Origin: Alphaproteobacteria bacterium UBA6324
GTDB taxonomy: Bacteria > Pseudomonadota > Alphaproteobacteria > CAAGCB01 > CAG-977
Assembly: GCA_002439085.1 (NCBI GenBank)
Contig: DJSW01000009.1
Span: 42,192 to 106,191, forward strand
Direction: 5' to 3'
DNA length: 64,000 nucleotides
Of this stretch, positions 9,443 through 36,623 are shown in pieces. Under the pieces are notes generated by a model, which saw only the letters and a list, made by a program, of their open reading frames with translations, had not been told where the DNA came from and did not search any database. Within the stretch, counting starts at the first letter, position 1. Each line of letters starts with the position of its first letter. Made by a program: the position numbers and the translations under genes.

Positions 9443-9445
9443 TCC

Positions 9446-18238: not shown

Positions 18239-18258
18239 TGCGGGAAAACGCGCGAAAG

Positions 18259-18291
18259 AAAACCCCCGCCGTTTTTCGTTCCGGCGGGGGT
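18259..18291 (-). terminator. Rho-independent terminator after the minus-strand gene 18311..20656.
   Basis: The minus strand reads cccccgccggaacgaaaaacggcggggg followed by tttt. Confidence 0.5.
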
Positions 18292-18310
18292 GTTCTTTAA
18301 AGGTTGTTGC

Positions 18311-20656
18311 TTACCGCTGTTTCTGCGCGCTGAGCAGCATATCGAAAGCCGATTTCTTCTGTTCGACCTTGAACCCTTTCAGGTTCAGCGGCGAAGCGCG
18401 TTCCGCCGTTTTCAGCGTTTCGGCATATTTCGCCATGCTTTCAAACGTGCGCAGGTCTTTTTTCTTCAGCGCGGTGGCCGTCTGCGGGCTACCCGTGAAG
18501 GTTTCGACCAGATATTTGTGCGTTCCGGCGACTTCGTTGTACAGCGTGGCGGCGACGTTTTTGTCCATGTTGCCCGCGCTCATCTGGTACTGCGCCAAAG
18601 CGGCCGTCGGTTTCTGTTTGGCTTTCTGGTCGATCAGCATGGACAGAACGGGATCGGCGGACACTTTCGCCCACGTTTCCTTGTCCGAACGGATCGCGAA
18701 AGCGGCAACCTGCGTTTCTTTTTCGGCGATCAAAGCCTTTTTGAAATCCTTGCGTTCGGCGCGCAGCGAATCGATCGTGTCGTTGACCGTCATCTTTTCG
18801 GGTTCGCGCTGGTACGCTTTGATCAGCGCGTTCGACAGAGAGGTCGCGACGCGCAGTTCGTTTTTAATGAAATGGACGATCGCGGCGTCGCCGGAAACTT
18901 CGGTCGTCGATTTGATGTCGTCCAACTGTTTTTTGACCAAGCGGTTGGCGGTCAGCATGGCTTCGACGTTCGGTGCCTGTTCGATGACGGCGTCAACGAC
19001 TTTCAGCTTATCGCCGGCGAACTTGTCGTTGCCTTTGTCTTTGCGGCCTTCCAGACGCAGGGTTTCCTTTTCGTCGCCCAAAACGGCGTGCATTTCGGCG
19101 CGCGATTCGGTGGTGTCCAGTTTGTCCAGCAGATCAGCCTGATACTGCGCGACGCTGAGGGCGCGCTTGTTTTCCGTTTTGGTCGCGTTGGCGCGCTGGG
19201 CTTTCAGCTTCTTTTTCAATTCGGGCGAAAAGTCCGGCGTCGGCGCGGGCAGACCCAAATTGGCGTTCAGCTGGGCGGCTTCGTGATACGCGCTGAGTTC
19301 GCGCTGCAACTCGTATTCCTGTTCCAGCACTTTGTTGTCAACGGGCATATGGTCGCGGGACACCTGAACGCGTTCCATCATCTGTTCGTATTTCGGGTGT
19401 TTTTCGCCGGTCGCCAGAGCGATCGAGATTTCGGCCATCTGCTGACGGGTCAGACCGTAGGTTTCGGACATGACCTGCGCCTGTTTGATGACTTCCAGAT
19501 CCGACATTTTCTGCAGCGAACCGTCGGCCAGATGTTCCTTGGCGTATTTGACCGTGGCGTCGATAACGTCGGTCGTGTGGTACGCCAGCGGCGATCCCAG
19601 CTGTTTGATCGTGTTGGCGACGTTGCGGTCGGCCATCAACTGTTTGAATTTGTTTTCATAATCCGGATCGTTCGGATTCTGCGCCTGCGCCTTTTCTTCG
19701 GCTTCGCGAATCTGTTTGATGAAATCGGTGTCGTATTTCGTGTCGTCCATGCGGCGGTCAACGCACATACGCAAATATTCGATGCGGCAGTCGCCCCAGA
19801 TTTCGGCGCATTTCGTGTTGCCGAAATCGCGCGCCAGCTGCAGAACGGCGTGCGCGTCGGCGATGCATTCCGTGCGGTGGCGGCACATCACGTTGTCCAA
19901 TTCCGTTTCGGCGATTTTGTTGACCGAGTTATAGGCGGACGCGTAGTTGTGGTCGGTCGCGTGTCCCAATTCGTGATACAGAACCAGACGGCGGAATTCG
20001 TCGAAGGAAACGCCTTCTTTCTTGCGGCGTTCTTCGGCGCCGACCACCATGTCCAGAACGTTCGCGCTCATCGCGTCGGGGTTGTCGCCGACGACCAGAT
20101 TGACGTTGCCCAAACCGGCCAGATTTTCCATGGTCGGCGAAACGGCGGCGCGCATCGAAAACGGGTTGCGGTCGGTGATGCCGGCTTCGGAAACGGATTT
20201 CAGAATCTCGTCGTTCGTCAGGAACGTTTTGCCTTTGCCCGCGGCGGCTTTCTGCAATTTGTCCTCGACGTACATATACAGGGATTTGCCCAGCGAACGG
20301 TCGTCTTCGGTATCCAGCAGGTAACGCCCCTGAACCGCGTCGGGGTCGATGATGAACAGCGTGACGCCCGGCATGACCGTGCGGAAACGTTTTTCCATAT
20401 TGTCAAAGAATTGATGCGCTTCGGTGTCCAACGCGGGGGATTTTTCCAATTCGGCGGGCGTTCTGACCGTCAGCGTGTCAGCGGCGTCGCCTTTGGCGAT
20501 GACGGACGTTTGGCCTTTCGGCAGCAAATTGAAGAACGGGCGATCCTGCAAATGGTCGGGACGATCCAAGCCGCTTTCAAAAACCGTGATTTTGCCGGCC
20601 CGCATAAAGGCGTCCAGCAACGAAGAGGTTTTCGATTCTTTGTTTTCTTCAGTCAT
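18311..20656 (-). CDS. Large (781 aa) cytoplasmic-looking HExxH zincin-like protein (HELGH...ECIAD gluzincin-type motifs). No signal peptide.
   Basis: LVLYHELGHATDHNYA...ETELDNVMCRHRTECIADAHAV. AGGAAA SD lies before the second ATG (20656). Terminator downstream. The long antisense ORF 18236..20668+ is a shadow. Confidence 0.7.
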   Translation of the reverse strand: MTEENKESKTSSLLDAFMRAGKITVFESGLDRPDHLQDRPFFNLLPKGQTSVIAKGDAADTLTVRTPAELEKSPALDTEAHQFFDNMEKRFRTVMPGVTLFIIDPDAVQGRYLLDTEDDRSLGKSLYMYVEDKLQKAAAGKGKTFLTNDEILKSVSEAGITDRNPFSMRAAVSPTMENLAGLGNVNLVVGDNPDAMSANVLDMVVGAEERRKKEGVSFDEFRRLVLYHELGHATDHNYASAYNSVNKIAETELDNVMCRHRTECIADAHAVLQLARDFGNTKCAEIWGDCRIEYLRMCVDRRMDDTKYDTDFIKQIREAEEKAQAQNPNDPDYENKFKQLMADRNVANTIKQLGSPLAYHTTDVIDATVKYAKEHLADGSLQKMSDLEVIKQAQVMSETYGLTRQQMAEISIALATGEKHPKYEQMMERVQVSRDHMPVDNKVLEQEYELQRELSAYHEAAQLNANLGLPAPTPDFSPELKKKLKAQRANATKTENKRALSVAQYQADLLDKLDTTESRAEMHAVLGDEKETLRLEGRKDKGNDKFAGDKLKVVDAVIEQAPNVEAMLTANRLVKKQLDDIKSTTEVSGDAAIVHFIKNELRVATSLSNALIKAYQREPEKMTVNDTIDSLRAERKDFKKALIAEKETQVAAFAIRSDKETWAKVSADPVLSMLIDQKAKQKPTAALAQYQMSAGNMDKNVAATLYNEVAGTHKYLVETFTGSPQTATALKKKDLRTFESMAKYAETLKTAERASPLNLKGFKVEQKKSAFDMLLSAQKQR

Positions 20657-20915
20657 AGCGTTTCCTAACATATCTATGAAAACTATATTTATGTTCGCAT
20701 AGTGATACCGCCGTATCCCGAAGTCAAGATTTTTTTAGACAAACACGGAAATTTTTTCTGAAATTATTTTTCCGAACCCCTATTGTTTCCGCCAAATTGC
20801 CGGTTGAACCGTTTTAAAGAAAACCGTCCGGTTCCGGCTATTCGCCCCGTTTGAAAAAAAGATGGAGGCGGGGGCGCGAAAACGCTATCATAATAAAAAA
20901 GGCAAGGAGGCGGAA

Positions 20916-21878
20916 ATGGTCGCATTCAAACGGACGCTGGCGCGTTTTATTGATTATCTGCTGTGGTCGATGGCGATGGTGCTGATTCTGGGCGGGAAAA
21001 CGGGCGAAGAGGTTTTCTACCGTTCATGGCAGTTTTACGCGTCGTTCTGGGTATATGCCGCGGTGGAAGCCGCGCTGGTTTCCGTGTTTAAAACGACGGC
21101 GGGCAAAGCGATGCTGGGGATTTACGTTTGCGCCGCGGACGGGGGAAAATTGCGGTTTTCCGATTCCCTGAAACGGTCGCTGACGGTGTTCGCGGGCGGG
21201 ACGGGGTGCCTGCTGTCCTACGCGTCCCTCGCGCTGCCGCTGTACGCCGTGTACGGGATGCTGCGCCGCCGCCCGATGTTTTGGGACGAAAGCGCCCGCG
21301 ACAGGGTCGAGGTTGTGCCGATGACGCGCCTGACAAAGGGCGTTTTCGCGCTGTTCGTCCTGTTTATGCTGACCGGTTGGGTGTTGACGGTGCGTGTGCT
21401 GTATTTGTCCCGCACGCCGGATTTCGATGAAATCGAGGAACAAACGCTGGCCATGTATTACGAGGATGTCCGCCCGCGCCTGATCCGCGCGCTGTCCGAG
21501 GAATCGCCCCTGTCGCCGGACGCGGCCGTTCGGACGCTGGCGGAATTGGAGCGCGTTCAGAAAAAGCTGCAGGATCAAAGCGAGTATTTGACCGCGGCCA
21601 AGGCGGATTTTGAACGCCGGATCGACAAAATCCCCGTTCCTGCGATCCGTGCCGCGCGGCGAAAAAAGGCGGAAGAGGTGTTCGCCCGCGCCGACAGGAT
21701 GGTGTTTTTGCAAAGCATGATCGTCAGCCTGTTTGAAAACGCGCTGGGCGTTTTTACGACCCCGCGTTCCTACACCGTTTCGGACGGCGTTCCGGTTTTC
21801 GACGATCCGGAAATCAACGCGCGCTATGAAAAGTACATGAGGGTGCTGTATATGTTTCTGGCAAAGGATATGCTCTAG
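20916..21878 (+). CDS. RDD-family membrane protein with a C-terminal cytoplasmic helical domain.
   Basis: KRTLARFIDYLLWSMAMVLILG is the RDD signature. AAGGAGG SD before ATG 20916. Confidence 0.65.
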   Translation: MVAFKRTLARFIDYLLWSMAMVLILGGKTGEEVFYRSWQFYASFWVYAAVEAALVSVFKTTAGKAMLGIYVCAADGGKLRFSDSLKRSLTVFAGGTGCLLSYASLALPLYAVYGMLRRRPMFWDESARDRVEVVPMTRLTKGVFALFVLFMLTGWVLTVRVLYLSRTPDFDEIEEQTLAMYYEDVRPRLIRALSEESPLSPDAAVRTLAELERVQKKLQDQSEYLTAAKADFERRIDKIPVPAIRAARRKKAEEVFARADRMVFLQSMIVSLFENALGVFTTPRSYTVSDGVPVFDDPEINARYEKYMRVLYMFLAKDML

Positions 21879-23047
21879 GCCGCCCGCCGCGTTTCCGCTT
21901 TGCGGCGTTTGCGTTCGCGTGTGTAATACCGGCTGAGCACCGCGACGGATAAAACCGCGCCGGCGACGGACAAGGACAGCCCCCAACGCACGTCAAATCC
22001 CGCGCCGACGATCAAAGCCGCCAGCAACATGGACGACACCGCGCCGACATCCCACCCCAGTTCCGTGTAATAGGTGAAATACAGCGGATGCGACGCGCGT
22101 TTCGTCGCGTTGTAAACGGCGGTCATCAACCCCGTCATCGAAAAACAGTACGCGATCGCGGCGAAAAAGTCGCACGCGATGACGGCGGGGACGGAATAGG
22201 CGAAAAATCCGCGAACCGTCAGGATGACGATGTGCATCCCGTATCCGATATAGCAGATTTGCCGGCCTTTGCCTTTGTCAATCAGGCGGCCGAACACCAT
22301 TGATCCCAACGCGCGGAAAAATGCGGCCAAAGCCAGAATGAACCCGAAATTCTGATAGCTTTCGCCCAACAGCATGAACACGATCAGCGGCCAGATCGAT
22401 CCCGCCTGATAAAACAGCCCGTCGCCGATGAACGCGATGAAACCGAAATGGTCGATGTGTTTTCTTTCCTCGTGTGTCGCGGGGGCGGGCAAGGGCAGGG
22501 ACGGCGTTTTCAACAGCGGGAAAACGGCGACCAAAGTCAGCACGAACGGCATTGTGAACGCGTAAACGGCGTTGAACGACAGCAATATCCCGCCGACCAG
22601 CGGGCCGATGACGGCGACGACGGTCGCGATGGCGTCGCGGATGCCGACGCTGGCGCCGCGGTCGGATTCATCGCCGATCGAAGCGAAATAGTTGTGATAG
22701 GACACCCAGTACAAAACGTCCGCCAATCCGGAAATCACGATGAACGGGATCAAATTCCACGTCAACCCGTCAATCGGCAACATGGCGGGATAGCGCAGGG
22801 CGAACGCGACGGTGCCGACCGTCAGCGTCCAATGCACGCCTTTTTTCAAACAGCAGAACATCGCCAGCGGACGGGTCAGCGTGCGCGAAAACAAAACCGC
22901 GGCATACACCAGAAAGGTCAGTGTCAGGCTCAGCCCCTGTTTGTACAGATAGGCCAGAGTGAACATGGAACACATTTCCCATCCCATGGCGCGCAGGCCG
23001 TAATGGACGTTCAGCAGGTTCAGCTGTTTGTTCGAGAAAAAAGACAT
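21875..23047 (-). CDS. MFS transporter.
   Basis: About 12 TM helices, 390 aa. AAAGG SD. Confidence 0.8.
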   Translation of the reverse strand: MSFFSNKQLNLLNVHYGLRAMGWEMCSMFTLAYLYKQGLSLTLTFLVYAAVLFSRTLTRPLAMFCCLKKGVHWTLTVGTVAFALRYPAMLPIDGLTWNLIPFIVISGLADVLYWVSYHNYFASIGDESDRGASVGIRDAIATVVAVIGPLVGGILLSFNAVYAFTMPFVLTLVAVFPLLKTPSLPLPAPATHEERKHIDHFGFIAFIGDGLFYQAGSIWPLIVFMLLGESYQNFGFILALAAFFRALGSMVFGRLIDKGKGRQICYIGYGMHIVILTVRGFFAYSVPAVIACDFFAAIAYCFSMTGLMTAVYNATKRASHPLYFTYYTELGWDVGAVSSMLLAALIVGAGFDVRWGLSLSVAGAVLSVAVLSRYYTRERKRRKAETRRAA

Positions 23048-23059
23048 TGTTCAACGCCT

Positions 23060-23932
23060 TTAAAACGAGAGGGTTTTCAGCGCGGCTTTGAATTCGTCCG
23101 CCAGATCGGGGCGGTCGAGCGCGTATTCGACGTTGGCCATCAAAAAACCGATTTTGTTGCCGCAATCGAACCGCTTGCCCTCGAACCGCATTCCGTGGAA
23201 CGGCACGCGGTTCAACGTCGCCGCCATGGCGTCGGTCAGCTGGATTTCGCCTTTTGCGCCGGTTTTCTGCTTGTCCAGTTCGGCGAACACTTCGGGCGAC
23301 AGGATGTAGCGTCCCAAAATGGCGCACCGCGACGGCGCCGTTCCGGGGGCGGGCTTTTCAACCATGCCGTTGACGCGCACCAGCTTGCCGTCGTCGTTTT
23401 CAATGCTGAGGATGCCGTAACGCGACGTCTGTTCCTCCGGCACGTCCTCGATCGCGACCAGATTGCCGGCGGTTCGGGGGTATTCGTCAACCATTTGTTT
23501 CAAACACGGCGTTTTGCAATGGAACAGGTCGTCGGGCAGCAACACCGCGAACGGTTCGTCGCCGACCAGATCGCGCGCGCACCACACGGCGTGCCCCAAC
23601 CCTTTCGGTTCGCTTTGGCGGGTGTAGGAGATTTTGCCCGAATCCAGCGTGCAGTCTTTTAAGAAATTCAGCAGATCCGTTTTGCCGTCCCGTTCCAGCA
23701 GGCGTTCCAGCTGCGAATTGGTGTCGAAGTGGTCTTCGATCGCGGTTTTGCCGTGTCCGGTGACGAAAATGAAATGTTCGATGCCGGCGGCGACGGCTTC
23801 CTCCACGGCGTATTGGATCAGCGGTTTATCGACGACGGGCAGCATTTCCTTGGGCATCGCCTTTGTCGCGGGCAAAAAACGGGTACCCAACCCGCCGACG
23901 GGGAAAACGGCTTTGCGGATGCGGACGGTCAT
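23060..23932 (-). CDS. galU: UTP--glucose-1-phosphate uridylyltransferase.
   Basis: AVFPVGGLGTRFLPATKAMPKEMLPV is the GalU signature. AAGGAG SD. Confidence 0.85.
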   Translation of the reverse strand: MTVRIRKAVFPVGGLGTRFLPATKAMPKEMLPVVDKPLIQYAVEEAVAAGIEHFIFVTGHGKTAIEDHFDTNSQLERLLERDGKTDLLNFLKDCTLDSGKISYTRQSEPKGLGHAVWCARDLVGDEPFAVLLPDDLFHCKTPCLKQMVDEYPRTAGNLVAIEDVPEEQTSRYGILSIENDDGKLVRVNGMVEKPAPGTAPSRCAILGRYILSPEVFAELDKQKTGAKGEIQLTDAMAATLNRVPFHGMRFEGKRFDCGNKIGFLMANVEYALDRPDLADEFKAALKTLSF

Positions 23933-24135
23933 AACGGCTCCTTGAACGGTTTTGAATGAATGTCGTTTTTTCCCCTTTTACCCCATTCTTTAGAATAAAG
24001 AAAATACAAAAATGAATTGACAACGGCGCCGCGGCTTGCCAATTTAGGCGGGGTGGGAAAAAACCACAACAAAAGACCATATTCCTGATTAGGAAAACAG
24101 CCGGAAAAACCGAAAATAACCGAGGAGTTATTACC

Positions 24136-25320
24136 GTGAATTTTGTCTTTCTCTCTCCGCATTTTCCGTCACACTACGTGAATTTTGCGGACCGCCTGAA
24201 AAAAATGGGCGTAAACGTTTTGGGAATCGCGGACGCGTCCTATGATTCCCTGACCCCGCAGTTGAAGGAGTCGCTGACCGAATATTACCGCGTTGACAAC
24301 ATGGAAAACTATGACGAAGTCATGCGCGCGGTCGCTTATTTCATTCACAAATACGGCCGGATCGACCGTTTGGAATCCTTTAACGAATACTGGTTGGAAA
24401 CGGACGCCCGTCTGCGCACCGATTTCAACATCGAAGGGACAAGATATCCGGAAGTGCTGGAAAGCAAGCGCAAATACCTGATGAAGAACCACTTTGAAAA
24501 GGCGGGCGTTCCGTCGGCGCGCTGCCATTGCGTCACCACCCGCGAGGAAGGCGCAAAATTCGTCAAGGAAGTCGGCTATCCCGTGTTCGTCAAACCCGAC
24601 ATCGGCGTCGGCGCGTACGCGTCCTATTCGATCAAAAACGACGAGGAATTCAACCGTTTCTATGACAACTATCCCACCGTCCCCTATGTGATGGAGGAAT
24701 TCGTCAACGGTTTGATCGTCACGTTCGACGGCATCGCGAACTATCAGAACGAACCGATTTTCATGACCAGCCACATTTTCCCCGAAAACGTCGCGGAAAC
24801 GGTCAACGCGGGCGACGATCTGCGCTATTATTCGGTTTTGAAAATCGACCCCGCGCTGGAAAAGGCGGGGCGTGCCGTGCTGGCGTCGTTCAACACGACG
24901 GCGCGTTTCTTCCACTTTGAATTCTTCAAACTGTACGAAGACAAAAAAGGACTGGGCAAAAAGGGCGATTACGTCGCGCTGGAGGTCAATATGCGTCCGC
25001 CCGGCGGATGTATGCCCGAACTGATGAACTATGAACACGACACCGACGTCTATCAGATGTACGCCGACATGATCGTTCATAACAAAGTCTATCAGCCGAC
25101 CGAAAAGAAATACATCGGCATTTACGTCGCGCGCAAGGATTGCTTCAACTACGTTCATTCGCACGAAGAAATTCTGGAAAAGTACGGCGATTACCTGATG
25201 CAGTACAATCCGGTCGATGAAATCTTTTCCGCGGTCATGGGCGACCATATGTACCTGATGCGCGCCAAAACGCAGGAAAAGGCGAATGAAATCATGGACT
25301 TCGTTCAGGAAAAACGCTGA
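24136..25320 (+). CDS. ATP-grasp domain protein (carboxylate-amine ligase-like).
   Basis: GTG start with GAGGAG SD. ATP-grasp motifs GYPVFVKPDIGVGAY and EVNMRPPGG. The stop overlaps the start of the next gene (TGATG). Confidence 0.7.
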   Translation: MNFVFLSPHFPSHYVNFADRLKKMGVNVLGIADASYDSLTPQLKESLTEYYRVDNMENYDEVMRAVAYFIHKYGRIDRLESFNEYWLETDARLRTDFNIEGTRYPEVLESKRKYLMKNHFEKAGVPSARCHCVTTREEGAKFVKEVGYPVFVKPDIGVGAYASYSIKNDEEFNRFYDNYPTVPYVMEEFVNGLIVTFDGIANYQNEPIFMTSHIFPENVAETVNAGDDLRYYSVLKIDPALEKAGRAVLASFNTTARFFHFEFFKLYEDKKGLGKKGDYVALEVNMRPPGGCMPELMNYEHDTDVYQMYADMIVHNKVYQPTEKKYIGIYVARKDCFNYVHSHEEILEKYGDYLMQYNPVDEIFSAVMGDHMYLMRAKTQEKANEIMDFVQEKR

Positions 25321-26066
25321 TGAAAATCGAATACTACAACGAATATAGCCCGAATCTGGGGCGTCATATGGAATTGAAGGTCTATGGGCACGCGGGGAAA
25401 CCGGTTCTGGTTTTCCCGTCCCAATGCGGCCGGTTCTATGAATACGAAGGATTCGGCATGATCGACGCCGCTTCGGGTTTTATCGAAGCGGGACGCGCCC
25501 AGTTTTTCTGCGTTGACGGGTTGGATTGGGAAACGTTCGTCTGCGCCGGATGGCCGGGCGACCGTCTGTACCGTTTTGAACAGTATTTCAAATACGTTTG
25601 CGAAGAAGTCGTGCCTTGGGCGTTGGATATCAACGCGATGGGCAGCAACTATCGCGCGGGCGGCATGATGACGACGGGATGTTCAATGGGCGCGTTGCAC
25701 GCGGCGAATTTCTTTTTCCGCCGTCCCGATCTGTTTGACGCGATGATCGCGCAAAGCGGGCTGTACAGCTGCCGTTCGTTTTTCCCGAATTGCGACGAAG
25801 CCGGCGTTTATTTCAATTCGCCGATCGAATACCTGCCGAATATGAACGATCAGGGGACGCTGGATCTGTACAAACGTTCCGACATCATCGTTTCCGTCGG
25901 TCAGGGCGCATGGGAAAACGAATGTCTGAGCGACACGCGCGCTTTGGACGGCATCATGCGCGCCAAAGGCATCCCCGCGTGGGTGGATTACTGGGGTTAC
26001 GACGTGCCGCACGATTGGCCGGCGTGGCGCGTCCAGTTGCCGTATTTTCTGGAACACGTTTTGTAA
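25320..26066 (+). CDS. Esterase family (alpha/beta hydrolase, GCSMG nucleophile elbow) protein, translationally coupled to the ATP-grasp gene.
   Basis: Putative-esterase (PF00756-like) motif TTGCSMGALHAANFFF. 1-nt stop/start overlap. Confidence 0.7.
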   Translation: MKIEYYNEYSPNLGRHMELKVYGHAGKPVLVFPSQCGRFYEYEGFGMIDAASGFIEAGRAQFFCVDGLDWETFVCAGWPGDRLYRFEQYFKYVCEEVVPWALDINAMGSNYRAGGMMTTGCSMGALHAANFFFRRPDLFDAMIAQSGLYSCRSFFPNCDEAGVYFNSPIEYLPNMNDQGTLDLYKRSDIIVSVGQGAWENECLSDTRALDGIMRAKGIPAWVDYWGYDVPHDWPAWRVQLPYFLEHVL

Positions 26067-26082
26067 TAAACGGAAAACAAAC

Positions 26083-26116
26083 GAAAACCCCGCCGTCAAA
26101 AGCGGGGTTTTTATAT
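26083..26116 (+). terminator. Rho-independent terminator after the esterase gene.
   Basis: aaaaccccgccgtcaaaagcggggtttttatat. Confidence 0.55.
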
Positions 26117-26189
26117 GGAAAAAAGTTGTTGATTGAATTTTAATATACGATATGCTGTATTGGTTGATAATCCGAACGGGGAGGGAAAA

Positions 26190-28241
26190 ATGACCGGTTT
26201 GAAAGATTTAAAAGAAGGCATCGAAAAGGGTAAAATCGTTTTGCCGAATGTGCAGCGCGGATTCGTCTGGAAACCGTGGCAGATCGAAAACCTGTGGGAT
26301 TCGTTGATGCGCCGTTTTCCGGTCGGGTCGTTCGTCGGCGTTGAAAAAGACGGCAAGACGGAATTGCTGGACGGGCAGCAGCGGGCGACGGCGATCGCTC
26401 TGGCTTTTTTTGAACCGGACGGAACAGAAGACTCGCAGAACGTGCTGCGGTCTTCGACGGATCGGGTGCGACTGTTCATTGATTTGAAAAAGGGAACGGG
26501 GACTGATCGGAAATACATTTTCCGCGTCATTACGAAATCGCATCCGTGGGGATATCAAAAAAGCCGGAACGATCGGACGTTGAGCGCGGAAAACATTCGC
26601 CGCGCGTGCGAGGATTACAAAATGGCAGATAAAAACCCGTATGCGGAACCGTTGGGCAAATTCTGGCCTTATGACGCGTCGTTTCCCGTGCCGTTCGGTT
26701 TTTTCCTGAACGGTGACAATGCGGCAACCGTCCGTTCAAAAATCGAACGGTGGTGCGAACGGCATCATCAAAAGCCTTTTCCGACGGGGCCGGATTATTA
26801 CGGCATAAAAGAATTGCTTGATACCGTGCGAGATGTTTTGGGTAACACTTCTTTGCCGCTGTTGTTGGTGAGCGAACAGGTTTTGGACGCGGAAACCGGA
26901 TTGTCCGCGTCGGACGGCGAAACCGACACCGATGCGGATGACGGGGACGATGAAATCGAAAACCTGTTCATCCGGCTGAACGCGGGCGGGACGCCTTTGC
27001 GCGGCGAGGAATTGAATTATTCGATTTTGAAAACGAACATCGGTATTGATTTGCAAAAAAGGATTGAAAACGCCTGCGCGGGATTTATGCGTCCGGCGCG
27101 TTTCATCACCATCGCCTGCCGTTTGTACCAGAACCGGCCGGAAAAACCGACGGCCGACGCCGTGACGATGCGTATTCAACCCAAGCAGTTTCAAGGGATC
27201 ATTCGCAATGAAAAAGCGGGATTCATCCGATTCGTTGAAAAATTGCTGGATGCGGATTTTTTGGGGCGCGTGAAAACGGTTCTGCGTTACGATCCGGACG
27301 ACAACGCGTTCGGGCTGCCGGATTTCATCGTTTCGGAATTGGCGGACAGGGCGCCGGAAGTCATGTTGATGCTGATGCACCGTTTGCTTTATACGGATGA
27401 TGAAACGAAAATGACGGAGGAAACGCGCCGCAGGATGCTGGGCGTTGTCACGCTGCTGACGTGGTTCGGAAAGGGGCAGCGCGACCATGCGCCGCTGATC
27501 GGCCGGTTGTGGGAACAGGTCAGAAAAACAAAAGAGGCGGACGCTTTTTGGTCGGCCGGTTTGATGCGGACGGCCTGTGAGGAAAGGGAAAACGAAACCC
27601 TTTTTCCGGCGTTTCCGAAATTTAACGAATTGAAAAAAGGCATAAAAGCCCAAAAAAACATCCGCATAGATTCACTGTATCGCTGGAATTTTGAAAAGGT
27701 TCAACCGTTCTTGTCGCGGCTTTTTTATGAAAGAAGCCTGATCCTTTACGCCCAGCGCGACGCGTTGAACCTGTGGTTCAAAGATTGGCGGGATTTTGAT
27801 TTGGAAGACACGCTGTGTCCGTTCGATTGGGATCACATTTCGCCAGAAAATCTGATTTACCGCAAACGCCATATTCACGACGCGTTGAAAAGCTGGTACC
27901 AGACGAACGGCAATTTCCGCGCGTGGCCGTTTACGCTGAACCGGAAAGATCAAGATGTTGTGCCGAGTGAAAAGCTTTTGTGTTCAAAGAATGATTTCAC
28001 GGACATTTTAAAAAGCATCGGCGTGACGGATTATCCGTATAAATCCGACGTGTTGCTTGATTGGTCGAAATGCGCCAAGGCATGGAAAGAAATTGATTTT
28101 AACGACCTGTCGGAAAAAACGGATTCGCAGCACAAAAGAAACAAACAGCTGATCAACGCCATTATCAACCGCAATCTGGAATTGATCCGGACGTGGTATG
28201 ACGAATTGCGTATCAACGATCTTTGCCCGTCAGGCAAATGA
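26190..28241 (+). CDS. GmrSD-like type IV (modification-dependent) restriction endonuclease: an N-terminal DUF262 (ParB-like NTPase) domain fused to a C-terminal DUF1524 (His-Me finger) domain.
   Basis: DUF262 motifs: PNVQRGFVWKPWQIENLWDSL and LLDGQQRATAIALAFF, then an acidic linker DGETDTDADDGDDE, then FIRLNAGGTPL. DUF1524 motifs: FDWDHISPE and NGNFRAWPFTLNRKDQD. GGAGGG SD before ATG 26190. Confidence 0.8.
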   Translation: MTGLKDLKEGIEKGKIVLPNVQRGFVWKPWQIENLWDSLMRRFPVGSFVGVEKDGKTELLDGQQRATAIALAFFEPDGTEDSQNVLRSSTDRVRLFIDLKKGTGTDRKYIFRVITKSHPWGYQKSRNDRTLSAENIRRACEDYKMADKNPYAEPLGKFWPYDASFPVPFGFFLNGDNAATVRSKIERWCERHHQKPFPTGPDYYGIKELLDTVRDVLGNTSLPLLLVSEQVLDAETGLSASDGETDTDADDGDDEIENLFIRLNAGGTPLRGEELNYSILKTNIGIDLQKRIENACAGFMRPARFITIACRLYQNRPEKPTADAVTMRIQPKQFQGIIRNEKAGFIRFVEKLLDADFLGRVKTVLRYDPDDNAFGLPDFIVSELADRAPEVMLMLMHRLLYTDDETKMTEETRRRMLGVVTLLTWFGKGQRDHAPLIGRLWEQVRKTKEADAFWSAGLMRTACEERENETLFPAFPKFNELKKGIKAQKNIRIDSLYRWNFEKVQPFLSRLFYERSLILYAQRDALNLWFKDWRDFDLEDTLCPFDWDHISPENLIYRKRHIHDALKSWYQTNGNFRAWPFTLNRKDQDVVPSEKLLCSKNDFTDILKSIGVTDYPYKSDVLLDWSKCAKAWKEIDFNDLSEKTDSQHKRNKQLINAIINRNLELIRTWYDELRINDLCPSGK

Positions 28242-28244
28242 AAA

Positions 28245-29039
28245 TCAGACCAGCAGGCTGAACAGTTTTGAAGAGGAGCTTTGATTTTTTGCGGAACGCA
28301 GGGTCGCCATGTTCGTGTATCCAGTCGCCAGCAAATCGGCCGCCCCTTGTGCCGCCAAAACGCTGGCACTGGCGGTGACGGAACCTGATTCGGCTTCCGC
28401 TTTGGCCAAAGCGATGTCGCCGTCGGTCATATTCGTGTGGTCGATGGATTGTTCCTGCGTGACGTAATCGTGTTTATAGGTGTCGCCCAGCTGCACCTGC
28501 AAAGCGTACAGCGTGTCCTGATCCACCGCCTTGCCGTCCTTTGTCGTGACGTGGATGTAATAGGTGCCGGCCTTTTGCACTTTGTATTGGCCGCGCATCA
28601 GCTGGTCGAATGCGTCGGTCGCCTTGCCTTTGCCCTCTTCGTTCGTCGCGATCAGCGTTTGGCGGTTGTTGACGTATTGGTACAGTTCGACTTTCAGGCC
28701 TTGGCCTTTGAAACGTTCAATAGCTTTTTCAAAATTGCTGGACGCTTCCTCCAGCGCGTCGGAAGCCGTGGATTCGTCGGCGTCGGCCGTTTCGCTGTTC
28801 GCACTGAGGTTGATGGCGGTCAGACGCAGTTTTCCCCGCGATGTGACAGTGAAAGAAAACCAGTCTTCCTTTTCATTTTCGGACAAGGTCGTGATCATGT
28901 TCAACCGCGAATAATTCAGCCGCGCCTGTCCCATGTCGCGCGCGTTGCGGATCGAATCGGCGTATGTGTCCGTCGTCGTCTTTTCCCACGTTTTCACATT
29001 GGTCGATTTTGTTGTCGCGTCCAGAACCGTCGTAGCCAT
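28245..29039 (-). CDS. Hypothetical protein with PPC (pre-peptidase C-terminal)-like beta-sandwich motifs. No signal peptide.
   Basis: EDWFSFTVTSRGKLRLTAINLS ... AGTYYIHVTTKDGKAVDQDTLYALQV. It sits 89 bp downstream of the cyclase gene on the same strand. Confidence 0.45.
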   Translation of the reverse strand: MATTVLDATTKSTNVKTWEKTTTDTYADSIRNARDMGQARLNYSRLNMITTLSENEKEDWFSFTVTSRGKLRLTAINLSANSETADADESTASDALEEASSNFEKAIERFKGQGLKVELYQYVNNRQTLIATNEEGKGKATDAFDQLMRGQYKVQKAGTYYIHVTTKDGKAVDQDTLYALQVQLGDTYKHDYVTQEQSIDHTNMTDGDIALAKAEAESGSVTASASVLAAQGAADLLATGYTNMATLRSAKNQSSSSKLFSLLV

Positions 29040-29128
29040 TTTCTACCTCGCCCGTTCAATCCGTTGTTGCGGAAATTCTTTCCACTCGTTCAATATACCA
29101 CAACGCGCGCCGGAAATCAAAGCCGACG

Positions 29129-31093
29129 TTAAAATTCGGGCAAACTTTCCGACAGCTCTTTTTCCTGCGGCGGTTCGGCGGGCTTTTCCGGTTCCTTGGG
29201 CGGCTGTTTTTTGGGTTTTTCCTCTTCCCACACCACTTCGTACAGCGTTTGCGGGGTGTCGATTCCTTTCAGGTTGAATTCGCCTTTCGGAACAAAGATG
29301 TAATTCTTGCCTGCGGCCAGTTCCTTGACGACGGAGGAAACGTAGATTTGGTTTTTGCCGGCTTCGCCGCACACGCGCGACGCCAGCTGGACGGTCAGGC
29401 CGAACAGGTCGTTGTTTTCCACGATCGGTTCGCCGGCGTTCAACCCGATGCGGACTTCCAAAGCGACGGTCGGCGATTCGCGGTTGTACAGACTGACCGC
29501 TTTTTGAATGGCGATCGCCGCGTCGATCGCGTTGGACGCCCACATGAACGACGCCATGATTCCGTCGCCAGTTTGTTTGATCTCTTCGCCGCCGCAAGTG
29601 CTCAACGCCTGACGGACGATCGTGTTGTGCCGGTGGATCAGCTGCTGCGCCATGCGGTCGCCCAGCGTTTGCGTCATATGGGTCGATGACACGATGTCGG
29701 TGAACATGACCGTGCAGATGCCCGACGCGACCGTTTCCTTTTTCGGATTCAGCCAGTTGGCCATTGTTGTTTGGATCAATCCGACCAATTCGGGCGACGA
29801 TTTGTTGTTCAGATAGGTTTCCATGCCCTTGGAACCGTTTTCGATGACGGTCAGGTACTTGGGTTCCATCATGTATTCTTCGATTTTATCGAAAAACAGA
29901 TCGGCCAAAGTCGGGGCGCGCCCCAACAGTTCCAGCAAACCGGCCAGCATCACGCGGTTTTGCTGGGCGGAAAGGGATTTCGACCGGCACAGCCGTTCGC
30001 ACGCGCCGGATAAAAACAGCTCGATTCCGAAACGGGCGTAGGTGTTTAAGAGGGTGTTCTTTTCCTGCAGCACGCGCAAAATGATGGACAGGAACGTCGT
30101 CAGTGTCAGGTAGTCTTTTTCCAATTCCGGCGGGATTTCGGCGTGTCCGGTTTCTTTGGCGGGGGCGGGCGTTGTTTCACCGTTGCCGTTTTCATCCGTT
30201 TCCGCGTTCGCGGTATCGTCGGGCGCATCCGCAGGCGTTTCGGGGGCGGTTTGTTCGGTCTGTTCTTCGCCGGCTTTTTCCTCTTCCCGCTTTTTGCGTT
30301 CCTCGTCGGCGGCCTGTTCCTCCGCCTCTTGCTGTTCGGCCTTTTCCTGCGCGGCCTCTTCGGCCTCTTTCAATCGCTGGGTCAGCGTTTTGCGTCCGCT
30401 CAGCACGTCAAAGGCGTCAAAAACGCGGCGCACCATGCGGGAAACAAGGGAATCGGATTTGGGTTCGGGACGTTCCGAATCGATTTCGTACAACTCGCGT
30501 TTGGAATATTTGGCGTCGTCGTCGCTTTCCTTGGATGTCGGGTACAGAGCGGACGTTTTTGGCGATTCCTCTTCATCCGATCCCAACAGGTTTTCCCATT
30601 TGACCCATTTGATCGCCGTCGGGACGGATATCACCAAAAAGAAGAACGTGAACGTTCCCAAAACGAACTGGCCGGAAATGTCCTGTTGCGAAAAACCGGC
30701 CAATCCCATGACGCGCAAAGTCACCACCGTGATCATGCTGGACAGGATCATGGCAAAGATGATCGACAGAAAGATCATGATGACGCCTTCGGCCAGGCCG
30801 GATTTTTTCCGGTCGTTGCGTTTGACGGTCGTCGGGATCACGCTGTTGGCGTAAGGGGACGATTTCGGCGGTTGCGGTTTCGGTATTTCGCTGAGATAGA
30901 CCATCGCCTCTTGGAACATTTGCGTGTCCAGATCGTAAGTTTCGCGCACGACCTTTGTCGGTTTGCGTTCCGTGTTTTCAATGCTGCGCGCGTATTCGAT
31001 CGCCTTCGACCGCTGTTCGGACGAATAACGCCCCAGCAAATCCCACGCGCTGTTTTGATAAACATAGACTTCGTAATGTATGATCGCGGACAC
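29129..31093 (-). CDS. Membrane-bound class III adenylate/guanylate cyclase. It has an N-terminal TM region and an acidic E/K-rich linker before the C-terminal cyclase homology domain.
   Basis: VMFTDIVSSTHMTQTLGD...GDGIMASF...RIGLNAGEPIV matches the cyclase homology domain. GTG start. Confidence 0.85.
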   Translation of the reverse strand: MSAIIHYEVYVYQNSAWDLLGRYSSEQRSKAIEYARSIENTERKPTKVVRETYDLDTQMFQEAMVYLSEIPKPQPPKSSPYANSVIPTTVKRNDRKKSGLAEGVIMIFLSIIFAMILSSMITVVTLRVMGLAGFSQQDISGQFVLGTFTFFFLVISVPTAIKWVKWENLLGSDEEESPKTSALYPTSKESDDDAKYSKRELYEIDSERPEPKSDSLVSRMVRRVFDAFDVLSGRKTLTQRLKEAEEAAQEKAEQQEAEEQAADEERKKREEEKAGEEQTEQTAPETPADAPDDTANAETDENGNGETTPAPAKETGHAEIPPELEKDYLTLTTFLSIILRVLQEKNTLLNTYARFGIELFLSGACERLCRSKSLSAQQNRVMLAGLLELLGRAPTLADLFFDKIEEYMMEPKYLTVIENGSKGMETYLNNKSSPELVGLIQTTMANWLNPKKETVASGICTVMFTDIVSSTHMTQTLGDRMAQQLIHRHNTIVRQALSTCGGEEIKQTGDGIMASFMWASNAIDAAIAIQKAVSLYNRESPTVALEVRIGLNAGEPIVENNDLFGLTVQLASRVCGEAGKNQIYVSSVVKELAAGKNYIFVPKGEFNLKGIDTPQTLYEVVWEEEKPKKQPPKEPEKPAEPPQEKELSESLPEF

Positions 31094-31187
31094 GGGCTTT
31101 TATTCCATAAAACACTGTTTCATTTATTGTAAAAGAGGTTTTATAAAAAAACAGTAAAAAAATGTAACGGATTGAAAATCAAAGGAT

Positions 31188-31236
31188 TTCGGATATGAAA
31201 AAGGCGGCCTCACAATCTGTGAAAGCCGCCTTTTGA
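31188..31236 (-). terminator. Rho-independent terminator after rpmE.
   Basis: aaggcggcctcacaatctgtgaaagccgcctt; on the minus strand it is followed by tttttc. Confidence 0.5.
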
Positions 31237-31248
31237 AACCCGCAAAAA

Positions 31249-31473
31249 TTACTTTTTGCCCGTGAAAGCCGCGAAACGTTTGTTGAATTTCGCCAACTGG
31301 CCGCCGCTGTCAACCAAACGGTAAACACCCGTCCATGCCGGATGAGCCAGCGGGTCAATATCCAAGCGAATCGTATCGCCTTCCTTGCCCATCGTCGAAC
31401 GGGTCTTGAATTCGGTTCCGTCTGTCATAACCACGGTGATTTCATGGTAATTCGGATGAATATCTTTTTTCAT
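31249..31473 (-). CDS. rpmE: 50S ribosomal protein L31 (non-zinc-ribbon type).
   Basis: [22 protein letters not shown]...KFNKRFA. GGAG SD. The track's TTG-extended start was rejected. Confidence 0.85.
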
Positions 31474-31561
31474 AACTTCAGCTCCAGAATGCAACAAGTG
31501 TTTTTTCTATACTCTAAAAGATTCGGCTTTTCAAGCCTGTTTTCGGCAAAAGTTCAAAAAA

Positions 31562-32611
31562 TCACTTTTCCGTCAGCTTGAATTCGATCCGGCGGTTTTT
31601 GCGGCGCGCCGATTCCGTGTTTTTGCGGTCGATCGGCTGATATTCGCCGAACCCCGCGGCCACCAACCGGCGGGCGGGGACGCCCCGGTCGATCAGGTAT
31701 TGGACGACGGCGATCGCCCGATTCGCGGACAGCTGCCAGTTCGACGAATACAGTTCGTTGCGGATCGGCACGGTGTCGGTGTGGCCGTCCACGCGCAAAA
31801 CCCATTGGATGTTTTTGGGAATTTTGCGTTGCAGTTCCTTGACCGTTTTCGCCAGAACGTTCAGCTGTTTTTTGCCATTTTCCTCCAACGCGGCTGAACC
31901 GCTTTTGAAAAACAGTTCGGATTGGAACACGAAGCGGTCGCCGACAACGGTGATGTCGTCACGATCGGCCAAAACCTTGCGCAGCGTTCCGAAAAATTCG
32001 GAACGGTAGGAGGCCAGCTCGCCCGCTTTGGCGGCCAGCGCGCGATTCAGCTTTTTGCCCAAATCGACGATTTGCGCTTTTTGCGCCTTGTCTTTCTTTT
32101 CCGCCTGATCCAAAACGGCGCGAATCTTGGCCAGCTCGGCCGTCAGCTTTTCCGTCTGCGCGGTCAAAACGGCCAGATGCGCTTTTGCGTCCTGCGATAT
32201 TTTGCGTTCGGATTTCAGGTCTTTTTCCAATTCGGTTTTGCGCAGTTTCAACGCCTTGGCGTCCTGCTCCATCAACGCGATTTGCGCCAGCGCGCGCGTG
32301 TTTTCGTCCTTGACGCCGGCCAGCTCTCCGGCCAGTTTTTCCGTTTCCGCCAGCTGCGCGTTCAAACGGATCGTCAAATCGGCCGTCGATTTGCGTTCGG
32401 CGGACAGCTCGGTCGCCAAATCTTTCAACCGGATGTTCAGCAGATCGATTTCCGTGTTTTTGGTGTCCAGATTCCGCCCCATGAAATAGTGCGCCAAAAC
32501 GAACAGCAGCAGGAAAAACAACACGACGATCAACAGTGTTGACATCGCGTCAACAAAGCTGGGCCAGAAATTGTATCCGCTGGAGTTTCTGAAACGGCGC
32601 ATGGCGGTCAC
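31562..32611 (-). CDS. MotB-like protein. An N-terminal TM helix is followed by a ~200-aa coiled coil and a C-terminal OmpA-like peptidoglycan-binding domain.
   Basis: TM segment LLIVVLFFLLLFVL. Heptad-rich region LKDLATELSAERK...KIRAVLDQAEKKDKAQKAQI. OmpA_C motifs: NWQLSANRAIAVVQYL...NRRIEF. 4-bp overlap with the upstream MotA-like gene. Confidence 0.75.
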   Translation of the reverse strand: MTAMRRFRNSSGYNFWPSFVDAMSTLLIVVLFFLLLFVLAHYFMGRNLDTKNTEIDLLNIRLKDLATELSAERKSTADLTIRLNAQLAETEKLAGELAGVKDENTRALAQIALMEQDAKALKLRKTELEKDLKSERKISQDAKAHLAVLTAQTEKLTAELAKIRAVLDQAEKKDKAQKAQIVDLGKKLNRALAAKAGELASYRSEFFGTLRKVLADRDDITVVGDRFVFQSELFFKSGSAALEENGKKQLNVLAKTVKELQRKIPKNIQWVLRVDGHTDTVPIRNELYSSNWQLSANRAIAVVQYLIDRGVPARRLVAAGFGEYQPIDRKNTESARRKNRRIEFKLTEK

Positions 32612-33594
32612 TTGTCCTGTCCGGAAATCGTGCGCACCAGCAATTTGAACGAATCGCGAATCTCGCGCAACAGGATTTCCTGACGGGCTTCGGAACGTTT
32701 GTCGATCTGGTTGACGTTATGGTCGATGCGGCTGATGATGCGCAGCAGATCCATGTCCGTCTGGACGCGTTCCTGCGCGCCGGATTCGCCCTTTTTCAGC
32801 TGCAGCCGGATGTCCGCCAGACTTTCGACGACCTGTTCCAGCAAAGCGTTGGCGTACGCGCCGTTCGACGTGACGGAATCGTCACCGCTGCCGACGGACG
32901 ACGAATAGCGCGTCAACGACGCCAGATGTTCGTCCAAACCGTTGTAAAAATTGTTTTGCGCGCGGCCGGCCTGCAGATCCAGAAAACCGACGACCAAAGC
33001 CCCCGACAGCCCCAGCAGGGACGACGAAAAGGCCGTTCCCATGCCCGACAGCGGCAGTTCCAGCGAATTTTTGATCGTGTTGAACGCTTCGGTCGCCTCT
33101 TCGCCCGAAACGTTCAGGGATTTGATCACGGTCGCCACGGCGCCGACCGTGTCCATCAACCCCCAAAACGTACCCAGCAATCCCAGAAAAGTGGACAGTC
33201 CGATCAGGTATTTTGAAATGTCTCGACTTTCCTCCAACCGCATTTCGACGGAATCCAAAATGGTGCGGGCGATGGTCGGGGACAGGACGGCGTTGCCTTT
33301 GGCGCGGTTGTTTTTCAACACCAAGGCCAGCGGAGACAGCAGGCGCAGTTTTTGCAGATCCGCGTCGGTCAGCGACAGGGCGGGCGCCTTGATCCACCGG
33401 ATTTCACGGTACAGCGCGAACACGGAATGAAAGTTCATGCCGACGCCGAACAGGAAAACGACGGCGATCAGGCTGTTCAGCGCGGGATTGGTCAAAAAGG
33501 CGTTTCGCAGTGCCGGATACAAAACGGCACACGCGCCCGCGACCAGAATCAGAAACAAAAACATACGGGTCACATAGCGGTTCGGCAGTTCCAT
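32608..33594 (-). CDS. MotA/TolQ/ExbB-family proton-channel protein with a ~110-aa cytoplasmic C-terminal tail.
   Basis: LIGLSTFLGLLGTFWGLMDTV is the MotA_ExbB signature. AAAGGA SD. Confidence 0.75.
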   Translation of the reverse strand: MELPNRYVTRMFLFLILVAGACAVLYPALRNAFLTNPALNSLIAVVFLFGVGMNFHSVFALYREIRWIKAPALSLTDADLQKLRLLSPLALVLKNNRAKGNAVLSPTIARTILDSVEMRLEESRDISKYLIGLSTFLGLLGTFWGLMDTVGAVATVIKSLNVSGEEATEAFNTIKNSLELPLSGMGTAFSSSLLGLSGALVVGFLDLQAGRAQNNFYNGLDEHLASLTRYSSSVGSGDDSVTSNGAYANALLEQVVESLADIRLQLKKGESGAQERVQTDMDLLRIISRIDHNVNQIDKRSEARQEILLREIRDSFKLLVRTISGQDK

Positions 33595-33613
33595 GTTCCA
33601 ATCCTTTTGTTTG

Positions 33614-34849
33614 TTATTTTTCTTTGATCAAAATATCCGTTCTGTCCGGAATTTTCGATCCCGCGCCCTTTTGTCCGAACGAACGGATTTCCATGCGCAG
33701 ACTGTTGATCCCCTGTTGCGCCAGATACGACCGGACGGCCAAAGCGCGGCGCAGGGAATGCTGTCTTTCCCCGCCCGTGCGGACGGGATCGGGCGCGCTG
33801 TAGGAATACAGCAAAACCCGTTTCGACGGATATTTTTTCAACTGCTCCGCCATGGTGTCCAACGCCGTCTGCATTTCATCGTCCAGCCGGGTCGCGCCGG
33901 TTTCAAAAATGAAAATGTGGTAAAGGGCGCGGTTGTGTTTCAGCGCGGCCGCGGTGGCGGAATCCTGCGGGATTTCCTGCGCCAGCCGCGCGGATCGCTC
34001 TTCGGGCGTCAGTTTCGACGAAACGGGGAAAACCGAAAAACGGACGGGCTGTTTGACCGCGGTTTTTCCGGCCGGTGTTTCCGCGCCGCCCGCCGCTCGC
34101 AACAACGTTTTCGGCTGGACGGACAGCGTGTCCGGCGCCGTTTCCATTAACGGCCGCGGCTTTTCGGCGGGTTTCGCCTCCGCCTGTTTCACGGCCGGTT
34201 TTTCCGCGGCGGCGGCCGTTTCTTTTTCCTTTTCCTCGGCCTGCTGTTGTTCTTTCAGCCGTTCCTGTTCCAGAAAATGCTTGGACAGTTTCGGCGGACG
34301 GGCGGCGGTTTCGACCTCTTCCGTTTTATCGCGGCGCGAGCTGTCCTCCGTCGCCAGAATCTTGACTTTCGGCACGGGGTTTGCGCGCGGCTTCAAACGG
34401 TCGTGCTCGTCGCTTTGGGCGGATTCCTTGACGTGGAATTTTTCAACGGGTTTCGCGGCGGCCGTTTTTTTGACGGCCGGTTTCGCCGGTTTTTTAGGGG
34501 CGGACGCTTTTTTCGCGGCGGGCTTCGCGGCCGGTTTCGCAACCGGTTTCGGCTTTGCCGCCGCTTTTTTCTCCGTCGCGTTTTTAGCCGCGGCCGCGGG
34601 CTTTGCGGCCGACTGCTTTTCCTCTTTTTTCGGTTCTTTCTTTTCCGCCTGTTCCGCCGGTTTCGCCGGTTCGGGCGCTTTCAGCGCGACGCCCGCGTCC
34701 TCGATTTTCAACGGGGCGGAAGTCAGGGCATCCTTGGGAATGAAATCCTCGGTCAAAACGTCCAGATCGACCGTGATTTGAGCAAAAGCCGCCGTCGCCG
34801 CCAAACAAGCGGCGGCAAAACAGGCGGCGGCTTTCACTGCGTTTTTCAA
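33614..34849 (-). CDS. Secreted Ala/Lys/Pro-repeat protein with a C-terminal OmpA-like domain.
   Basis: TTG start with AAGGAG SD 7 nt upstream. Signal peptide KNAVKAAACFAAACLAATAAFAQ. Repeats AKPAAKPAAKKASAPKKPAKPAVKK. C-terminal HSLRRALAVRSYL..G fits OmpA_C-like. Confidence 0.6.
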   Translation of the reverse strand: MKNAVKAAACFAAACLAATAAFAQITVDLDVLTEDFIPKDALTSAPLKIEDAGVALKAPEPAKPAEQAEKKEPKKEEKQSAAKPAAAAKNATEKKAAAKPKPVAKPAAKPAAKKASAPKKPAKPAVKKTAAAKPVEKFHVKESAQSDEHDRLKPRANPVPKVKILATEDSSRRDKTEEVETAARPPKLSKHFLEQERLKEQQQAEEKEKETAAAAEKPAVKQAEAKPAEKPRPLMETAPDTLSVQPKTLLRAAGGAETPAGKTAVKQPVRFSVFPVSSKLTPEERSARLAQEIPQDSATAAALKHNRALYHIFIFETGATRLDDEMQTALDTMAEQLKKYPSKRVLLYSYSAPDPVRTGGERQHSLRRALAVRSYLAQQGINSLRMEIRSFGQKGAGSKIPDRTDILIKEK

Positions 34850-34871
34850 GGGACGACTCCTTTAAAGCTCC

Positions 34872-35930: not shown

Positions 35931-35950
35931 GGCCTGAGCCTTTCAATAAA

Positions 35951-36514
35951 TTATTTCGCGCGTTCGACGTAGGTGTTGTCGATGGTGGAAACGACGATCT
36001 TGTCGCCCGTCGCGACGAACGGGGGAACGCCGATGCGCAGACCGTTGTCCAAAACGGCCGGTTTGTAGGACGAGGAAACCGTCTGGCCTTTGATCACGGG
36101 TTCGGTTTCGACGACCGTCTGGATGACTTTGGCGGGCAGTTCGACGCCGACGGGGCGGCCTTCGATGAACTGGACGACGACCTCCATATTGTCCTGCAGG
36201 TACGCCGCGCGGTCGCCCAGCATATCCTTGGGGATCGTGAACTGGTCGTAGGTGTCCACCATCATGAACGTGTAATCCGAACCGTCGGAGAACAAATACT
36301 GGCAATCGCGGTCTTCGCTCATCAGTTTTTCGACGAAATCGGCGGTACGCCAACGCTGTTCCGTTTTCACACCCGTGGCGACGTCGCGCATTTTGACCTG
36401 AATGGTCGCGTTGCCCTTTCCGGGGATGACCAGTTCGTAATCAATGACGATGCACGGTTTGCCGTTGTATTCGATGACCCAACCCGGACGGATTTGGTTA
36501 GCTTGCATTTTCAT
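35951..36514 (-). CDS. efp: Elongation factor P.
   Basis: MKMQANQIRPGWVIEYNGKPCIVID..IPGKGNA, with the conserved modifiable Lys in the PGKG loop. AAGGA SD. The 120-aa upstream extension in the track was rejected. Confidence 0.9.
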   Translation of the reverse strand: MKMQANQIRPGWVIEYNGKPCIVIDYELVIPGKGNATIQVKMRDVATGVKTEQRWRTADFVEKLMSEDRDCQYLFSDGSDYTFMMVDTYDQFTIPKDMLGDRAAYLQDNMEVVVQFIEGRPVGVELPAKVIQTVVETEPVIKGQTVSSSYKPAVLDNGLRIGVPPFVATGDKIVVSTIDNTYVERAK

Positions 36515-36623
36515 GTGTTTTTTCCTTGTATATTGAAAGAAAGACAATAAAATTTGTGCAAAACCTAACAGATTAGCGTTCTGAACGCAAGAGTTCTGCG
36601 TTAAAAAACGGGAGTATTTTTTT

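Follow-up and report, generated by a model that had tools for sequence, protein, structure and literature searches.

The stretch of DNA analyzed here comprises 64,000 nucleotides (nt) of Alphaproteobacteria bacterium UBA6324 (contig DJSW01000009.1, positions 42,192 to 106,191) and is called the window in the following. On its forward strand it carries a gene for a protein of 683 amino acids (aa), which combines an N-terminal DUF262 domain with a divergent nuclease domain and thereby resembles enzymes of the GmrSD family. The gene and its features are located as follows, in window coordinates:

26084-26111, no strand assigned: hairpin with an 11-bp stem (6 G-C pairs) and an A-run and a T-run on its flanks, kept in the relative L002
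26177-26184, forward strand: Shine-Dalgarno-like sequence GGGGAGGG, 5-12 nt 5' of the ATG at 26190, read from the sequence
26190-28241, forward strand: probable GmrSD-family (BrxU-like) single-polypeptide nuclease gene, 683 aa
26205-27014, forward strand: DUF262 / GmrSD_N ParB-like NTPase domain (aa 6-275), placed by the Pfam stretch, the hhalign comparison with BrxU and invariant columns
27090-27686, forward strand: all-helical middle region joining the two catalytic domains (about aa 301-499)
27687-28238, forward strand: divergent DUF1524 / GmrSD_C His-Me-finger (HNH) nuclease domain (about aa 500-683)

The open reading frame (ORF) at 26190-28241 is a real gene and not a chance ORF, since 374 homologues of the 683-aa protein are found in a 90%-clustered database, 399 representatives were obtained at E<=1e-30 when 1.84 billion were searched at 50% clustering, and the codon-aligned ratio of nonsynonymous to synonymous substitutions (dN/dS) against L002, a relative with 95% identity, is 0.28. 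Its translation contains no internal stop and holds every motif string quoted in an earlier note on this DNA: VQRGFVW (aa 21-27), DGQQR (61-65), FIRLNAGGTPL (260-270), DWDHISPE (546-553) and GNFRAWPFTLNRKDQD (574-589). The ribosome-binding site and the position after a terminator, both claimed in the same note, can likewise be read in the sequence as GGGGAGGG and the hairpin. L002 has a TTG start at the position of the window ATG, preceded by an identical Shine-Dalgarno sequence; thus the start site is conserved. The hairpin follows 18 nt past the stop of the upstream esterase gene and is likely the terminator of an ATP-grasp/esterase operon, which it parts from the nuclease gene. At the 3' end of the latter, the stop codon of a convergent neighbor is 3 nt away.

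The DUF262 domain was recovered by domain search: Pfam GmrSD_N / DUF262 (PF03235) matches aa 6-275 with 84.5 bits against a cut-off of 33.2, and the same domain was matched in all 44 relatives scanned. Conservation was read from two alignments, one of 63 close relatives (A2) and one of 44 more distant relatives (A3). Within the domain lie QR (aa 22-23), NLWDS (34-38), DGQQR (61-65) and FIRLN (260-264), and the residues Q22, R23, D61-R65, F260 and N264 are invariant in both alignments. The GmrS motifs QR, (I/V)DGQQR and FxxxN, as defined by Machnicka et al. (PMC4619093), all have their counterparts in Q22-R23, L60-D-G-Q-Q-R65 and F260-I-R-L-N264. In addition, NLWDS (N34-S38) aligns with RLFDS (R38-S42) of BrxU, the nucleotide-binding motif of that enzyme (PMC8565348), with N as the first residue where BrxU has R. 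W36, D37 and S38 are invariant among the close relatives, while the more distant set retains S38 throughout and shows a conservation of at least 90% for W36 and D37. GmrSD, SspE and HEC-06 reportedly lack the RLFDS motif (10.1101/2024.01.29.577857). In the window protein, the motifs for binding and hydrolyzing nucleotides are all intact. BrxU (7p9k, E 1.4e-6) is the sole meaningful sequence match in the PDB, and hhalign of a profile of the 63 relatives against BrxU gives a probability of 99.2% over aa 3-76. An insert within the domain (aa 76-235), large relative to BrxU, carries the invariant SHPWGY. The acidic stretch at aa 236-256, which had been taken for a linker between the domains, is instead a loop inside DUF262, variable in length and disordered in the structure model described below (predicted local distance difference test, pLDDT, <50).

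The C-terminal half is supported as a His-Me (HNH) nuclease domain of divergent DUF1524 type whose D-H-N-N motif is intact, based on transitive Pfam matches in relatives, invariant catalytic motifs and the structure model. The predicted catalytic residues D548, H549, N575 and N584 reproduce the E/D-H-N-N motif described for GmrD (PMC4619093) and, like D546, are invariant in both alignments; this includes the histidine of the DHISPE string, which the earlier note had proposed as catalytic. PFDWDHISP aligns with HFHVDHIYP of BrxU and brings DH opposite D474-H475, while the spacing of 9 between the two asparagines equals that of N509-N518 in BrxU. In BrxU, the exchanges D474A and H475A abolish DNA cleavage and defence, and mutants in DGQQR lose defence (PMC8565348). 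The Pfam model of the domain, PF07510, scores 22.4 and 21.4 bits in the relatives P0035 and P0049, over the region that aligns to window aa 520-610, and matches 16 of 44 members of the broader family at E<=0.01 (best E 2.3e-7). An AlphaFold2 model of the window protein, built on 63 sequences (pLDDT 85; predicted template modeling score, pTM, 0.84), shows a strand at 545-549, a second one at 576-580 and then short helices at 592-595 and 600-609, and its C-terminal half resembles solved DUF1524 domains in fold. The strong structural matches of the model, four in all, are only BrxU, SspE and DndI (including 9jfl, 7dri and 6jiv).

Neighbors of the relatives in 78 genome loci were clustered crudely (greedy ORF caller, single linkage) and recurrent clusters were annotated with Pfam. 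Recurrent defence-associated genes are present within 5 ORFs in 38 of the 63 informative loci. Type I restriction-modification (R-M) operons surround the gene in 13 loci, in the order HsdM, HsdS, GmrSD-like gene, GIY-YIG, HsdR, and WYL/WCX (BrxR-like) regulators stand beside relatives in 20. BREX genes occur near relatives in three loci, two of which (L008 and L017) have the gene between PglX and PglZ; DISARM-like helicase/SNF2/methylase clusters hold relatives in two (L009 and L015), and some relatives are found near SMODS genes. The relative P0049 (38% identity; L084-L086, 1909-8716) resides in an island with a serine recombinase and a type II R-M system, with two C5 cytosine methyltransferases, Vsr and a MvaI/BcnI-type endonuclease. 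Being located beside C5-methyltransferases, P0049 therefore tolerates at least some host 5-methylcytosine. A relative with 50% identity is solitary among housekeeping genes, just as the window copy. Searches with tblastn gave two distant matches in plasmids and none in a phage collection. At three loci (L019, 1613-9935; L067, 6727-9906; L078, 12530-21841), which stem from different phyla (Mucilaginibacter, Acidocella and Nitrosomonas), the GmrSD-like gene adjoins RecC-, RecB/UvrD- and RecD-like genes. This adjacency could be due to chance, to a hotspot or to a functional link with RecBCD.

Consequently, given the N-terminal Pfam match, the alignments with BrxU, the invariant motifs and the defence settings of the relatives, we assign the protein to the GmrSD/BrxU type: the gene probably encodes a stand-alone, BrxU-like type IV restriction enzyme of the GmrSD family.

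Several results weigh against this assignment. The nuclease gene stands alone among housekeeping genes, without a defence island around it, and since it is a single gene, the 'compact anti-phage island' of the earlier note was overstated. No curated defence model spans the protein: the PADLOC models cover only aa 5-75, and HEC-05, the model for BrxU, reaches 71.5 bits over aa 5-49 only, short of a full-length BrxU profile match. Pfam DUF1524/GmrSD_C (PF07510) does not match the window protein, the isolated C-terminal fragments of 379 and 177 aa returned nothing relevant from Pfam at E<=10, and an NCBIfam scan of the window protein gave no match. With phmmer and hhalign, similarity to BrxU was detected nowhere beyond the N-terminal part; full-length BrxU against the family profile yielded the N-terminal match alone, and a comparison restricted to the C-terminus aligned the DH motif weakly (E 1.3e-3, probability 18%). 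The global TM-scores of the model to BrxU are low (0.26-0.29). Finally, the dependence on modified DNA and the nature of the target, be it glucosyl-hydroxymethylcytosine (glc-hmC) or phosphorothioate, are purely inferred from the family. However, BrxU itself, an experimentally validated enzyme of the GmrSD family that served as control, obtains 17 bits with PF07510 against a cut-off of 23; thus Pfam is too insensitive to settle the DUF1524 question. The domain architecture named by the earlier note is supported, although Pfam did not recover DUF1524 in the window protein, an outcome that the note had listed as refuting and that formally applies here. The low global TM-scores are to be expected as well, because AlphaFold fails to reproduce the relative domain positions in these flexible, intertwined dimers (10.1101/2024.01.29.577857).

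Comparison with characterized enzymes reveals both shared and distinct features. BrxU of Escherichia fergusonii pEFER (PDB 7p9k/7p9m) is a type IV restriction enzyme of the GmrSD family, yet its identity to the window protein is only about 16% overall, and sequence similarity can be detected over aa 5-76 and 248-280 alone. The window protein is about 100 aa longer, and its spacing from H to N is 26 in contrast to 34 in BrxU. Furthermore, BrxU is embedded in BREX, whereas the window copy is solitary. GmrSD (E. coli CT596/UT189, Eco94GmrSD), the founding type IV enzyme against glc-hmC DNA, shares with the window protein the fusion of DUF262 and DUF1524 and the motifs DGQQR, QR, FxxxN and E/D-H-N-N (PMC4619093), and it likewise is a single-gene system without methyltransferase. 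The GmrD motifs (I/L/V)(E/D)H(I/L/V)xPQ and L(G/A)NLxLLxxxN are only loosely kept (WDHISPE and NGNFRAWPFTLN, respectively). HEC-06 is another GmrSD-like protein, which is embedded in Hma systems and requires DGQQR and (E/D)H for defence (10.1101/2024.01.29.577857). Its PADLOC models match the window protein weakly (E 2e-5 or worse) and at the N-terminus only, and while HEC-06 is devoid of an RLFDS-type motif, the window protein retains the counterpart NLWDS.

If the protein works like BrxU and GmrSD, it would dimerize, and binding and hydrolysis of nucleoside triphosphates in the DUF262 domain would permit cleavage of incoming DNA by the HNH domain. The target would be DNA with a base modification foreign to the host, e.g., hypermodified cytosine. 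Host DNA would be without the mark and hence spared, so that no methyltransferase partner would be needed. With the predicted terminator ahead of it and a ribosome-binding site of its own, the nuclease gene appears to be transcribed alone. PADLOC, applied to 68 window ORFs at E<=1e-6, detected no dnd/ssp, BREX or R-M component, and no methyltransferase partner was found within the 64 kb, which agrees with the earlier note. Its only matches in the window are the nuclease gene, MotAB/OmpA-like proteins (weak ZorA/ZorB) and a cyclase (weak PycC).

Two other functional readings have to be weighed, both of which we consider unlikely. First, the protein might be an SspE/DndI-type effector, that is, a phosphorothioate-sensing nickase of unmarked foreign DNA in a host whose own DNA is marked by ssp or dnd genes located elsewhere in the genome. 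Structures of DndI (9jfl) and SspE (7dri, 6jiv) indeed are among the only four strong matches of the model, and both the two-domain architecture and the DGQQR motif are shared (PMC11662687). However, BrxU is closer by sequence as well as by structure, and NLWDS corresponds to the RLFDS of BrxU, which SspE is reported to lack (10.1101/2024.01.29.577857). Both nickases depend on modification by ssp or dnd genes, of which the 64 kb contain none; the relatives occupy loci of BREX, type I R-M and DISARM-like type, and no dnd or ssp component was among the recurrent neighbor families annotated. Moreover, DndI is toxic without phosphorothioate modification (PMC11662687). The HNH domain of SspE and DndI is a beta-beta-loop variant (PMC11662687), whereas in the window model the helices 592-595 and 600-609 follow strand 2. 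Since BrxU is the better match, NLWDS is present, dnd/ssp genes are not nearby and DndI is toxic in the absence of the modification, an SspE/DndI-type effector is less likely than a BrxU-like enzyme.

The second reading concerns the role of the gene, and here its evolutionary history matters. The closest genome is that of an uncultured rumen member of the Rhodospirillales (metagenome-assembled genome RUG12246), which is collinear with window 18253-38230 at 95% nucleotide identity. Congeneric metagenome contigs with 80-85% nucleotide identity retain the genes for the NTP-transferase, the ATP-grasp enzyme and the esterase, but their homology to the window stops at 26047-26069, exactly at the esterase stop (L090, L093, L096, L098 and L100, divergent downstream of about 8750). 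The genes past this point differ from relative to relative and comprise Slam, Fe-S, small-molecule methyltransferase, GNAT, histidine kinase, IS110 and secretin genes. Window 26047-26069 is thus a recurrent rearrangement point. The nuclease gene lies where synteny breaks and occurs in the closest lineage only, which makes it accessory in a rumen/gut Rhodospirillales lineage. In these relatives, the genes downstream of the esterase are of non-defence type, and hence the site does not represent a defence hotspot. Past the breakpoint of one of the contigs, L098, two stretches of the window (9036-9913 and 59673-64000) are matched in inverted order. Compared with L002, protein identity is 89% for the nuclease, in contrast to 95-100% for the flanks; dN amounts to 0.056 versus 0-0.014 (4 to 50 times), while dS is similar, and variation is highest in the C-terminal tail (omega 0.48). 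Selection on the gene is purifying, yet its protein evolves at an accelerated rate, as would suit a defence gene.

Against this background, an NTPase-nuclease of GmrSD fold with another role, acting on unmodified DNA under other control or in repair or recombination of host DNA, appears improbable. The solitary position among housekeeping genes would suit such a role, and so would the three relatives beside recBCD-like genes in different phyla and the subfamily-specific invariant motifs SHPWGY, LYAQR and GNFRAWP, for which there is no curated model. In contrast, most of the informative contexts of relatives are defence loci, the gene is accessory, absent at this site in relatives with 80-85% identity, and evolves faster than its flanks, and the characterized proteins of the same architecture are all defence nucleases (10.1101/2024.01.29.577857, PMC8565348, PMC11662687). 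Least probable is a remnant, inactive or decaying, whose short form results from loss of the C-terminal extension of 90-179 aa (about 150 in most) which 39 of the 63 aligned relatives possess and the window protein lacks, as the catalytic motifs are all intact, dN/dS is 0.28, short forms are numerous in several lineages (e.g., P0004-P0007, P0016, P0035 and P0049) and the ORF ends cleanly 3 nt from the stop of its neighbor.

The extension of the long forms folds confidently (pLDDT 81), but neither Pfam nor PDB sequences match it, and comparison of folds gave nothing convincing. The BrxU-like window protein belongs to a distinct, uncharacterized clade of GmrSD-like proteins, which is large and conserved and has SHPWGY, LYAQR, PFDWDHISP and GNFRAWP as signature motifs. 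One might speculate that the DNA modification or the regulation in this clade is unlike the cytosine hypermodifications known from GmrSD and BrxU, although we regard this as doubtful.

Upstream of the nuclease gene are genes for an NTP-transferase, an ATP-grasp enzyme and an esterase, as had been described for the latter two in the earlier note. Downstream follow a 264-aa protein, a membrane class III nucleotide cyclase, ribosomal protein L31 and a MotA/MotB/OmpA-like cluster, while RuvAB, Tol-Pal, a tRNA synthetase, MscL and similar genes are found elsewhere in the window. The window contains no tRNA genes, no integrase was found among the neighbors, and flanking direct or inverted repeats were not convincing. 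The GC content of the nuclease gene is 50.7% versus 56.5% (z -1.85) and deviates mildly; at third codon positions (GC3) z is -0.74. The ATP-grasp ligase and the esterase (24136-26066, forward strand) overlap with stop and start at 25320. Most of the 80 metagenome loci obtained via the esterase keep the two genes together as a conserved module, which might act on a small molecule or peptide by modifying or degrading it.

The 264-aa protein (28245-29039, reverse strand) had been labeled 'PPC-like', a match that is sub-threshold at 22.1 bits against a cut-off of 25.9. It is encoded after a membrane-anchored class III adenylate/guanylate cyclase of 654 aa with a long acidic low-complexity linker (29129-31093, reverse strand). 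We considered and rejected a Pycsar system made of these two genes, as the PycC match is weak (27.6 bits) and the cyclase is a 654-aa membrane protein of class III. In addition, no hydrophobic transmembrane stretch was seen by eye in the 264-aa protein, which further disfavors Pycsar. Three genes at 31562-34849 (reverse strand) encode a MotA/ExbB-like protein (328 aa), a MotB-like protein with OmpA domain and a second OmpA-like protein; the MotB-like/OmpA protein corresponds to the 'peptidoglycan-binding protein' NF006543 of NCBIfam (388 bits). Zorya was rejected for the MotA/MotB-like pair, given that ZorC and ZorD are absent, the ZorA-like protein is short and the pair falls to the NCBIfam peptidoglycan-binding family PRK09039. 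Thus the cluster is probably not Zorya.

With this gene, the GmrSD/BrxU family gains a branch that is divergent yet assigned with confidence, originating from an uncultured gut or rumen alphaproteobacterium. Since the PF07510 model misses both this branch and BrxU, and the PADLOC models cover no more than about the first 75 residues, annotation pipelines may report such proteins as 'DUF262 protein' or under-call them. Without a new specificity, this would be an ordinary defence gene, as solitary genes of GmrSD type are common and its anatomy is unsurprising. If the clade does recognize another modification, it would represent a new type IV specificity, recruited recurrently by loci of BREX, DISARM-like and type I R-M type, and the enzyme could be a useful reagent for mapping modified DNA and for studying phage-host dynamics in the gut.

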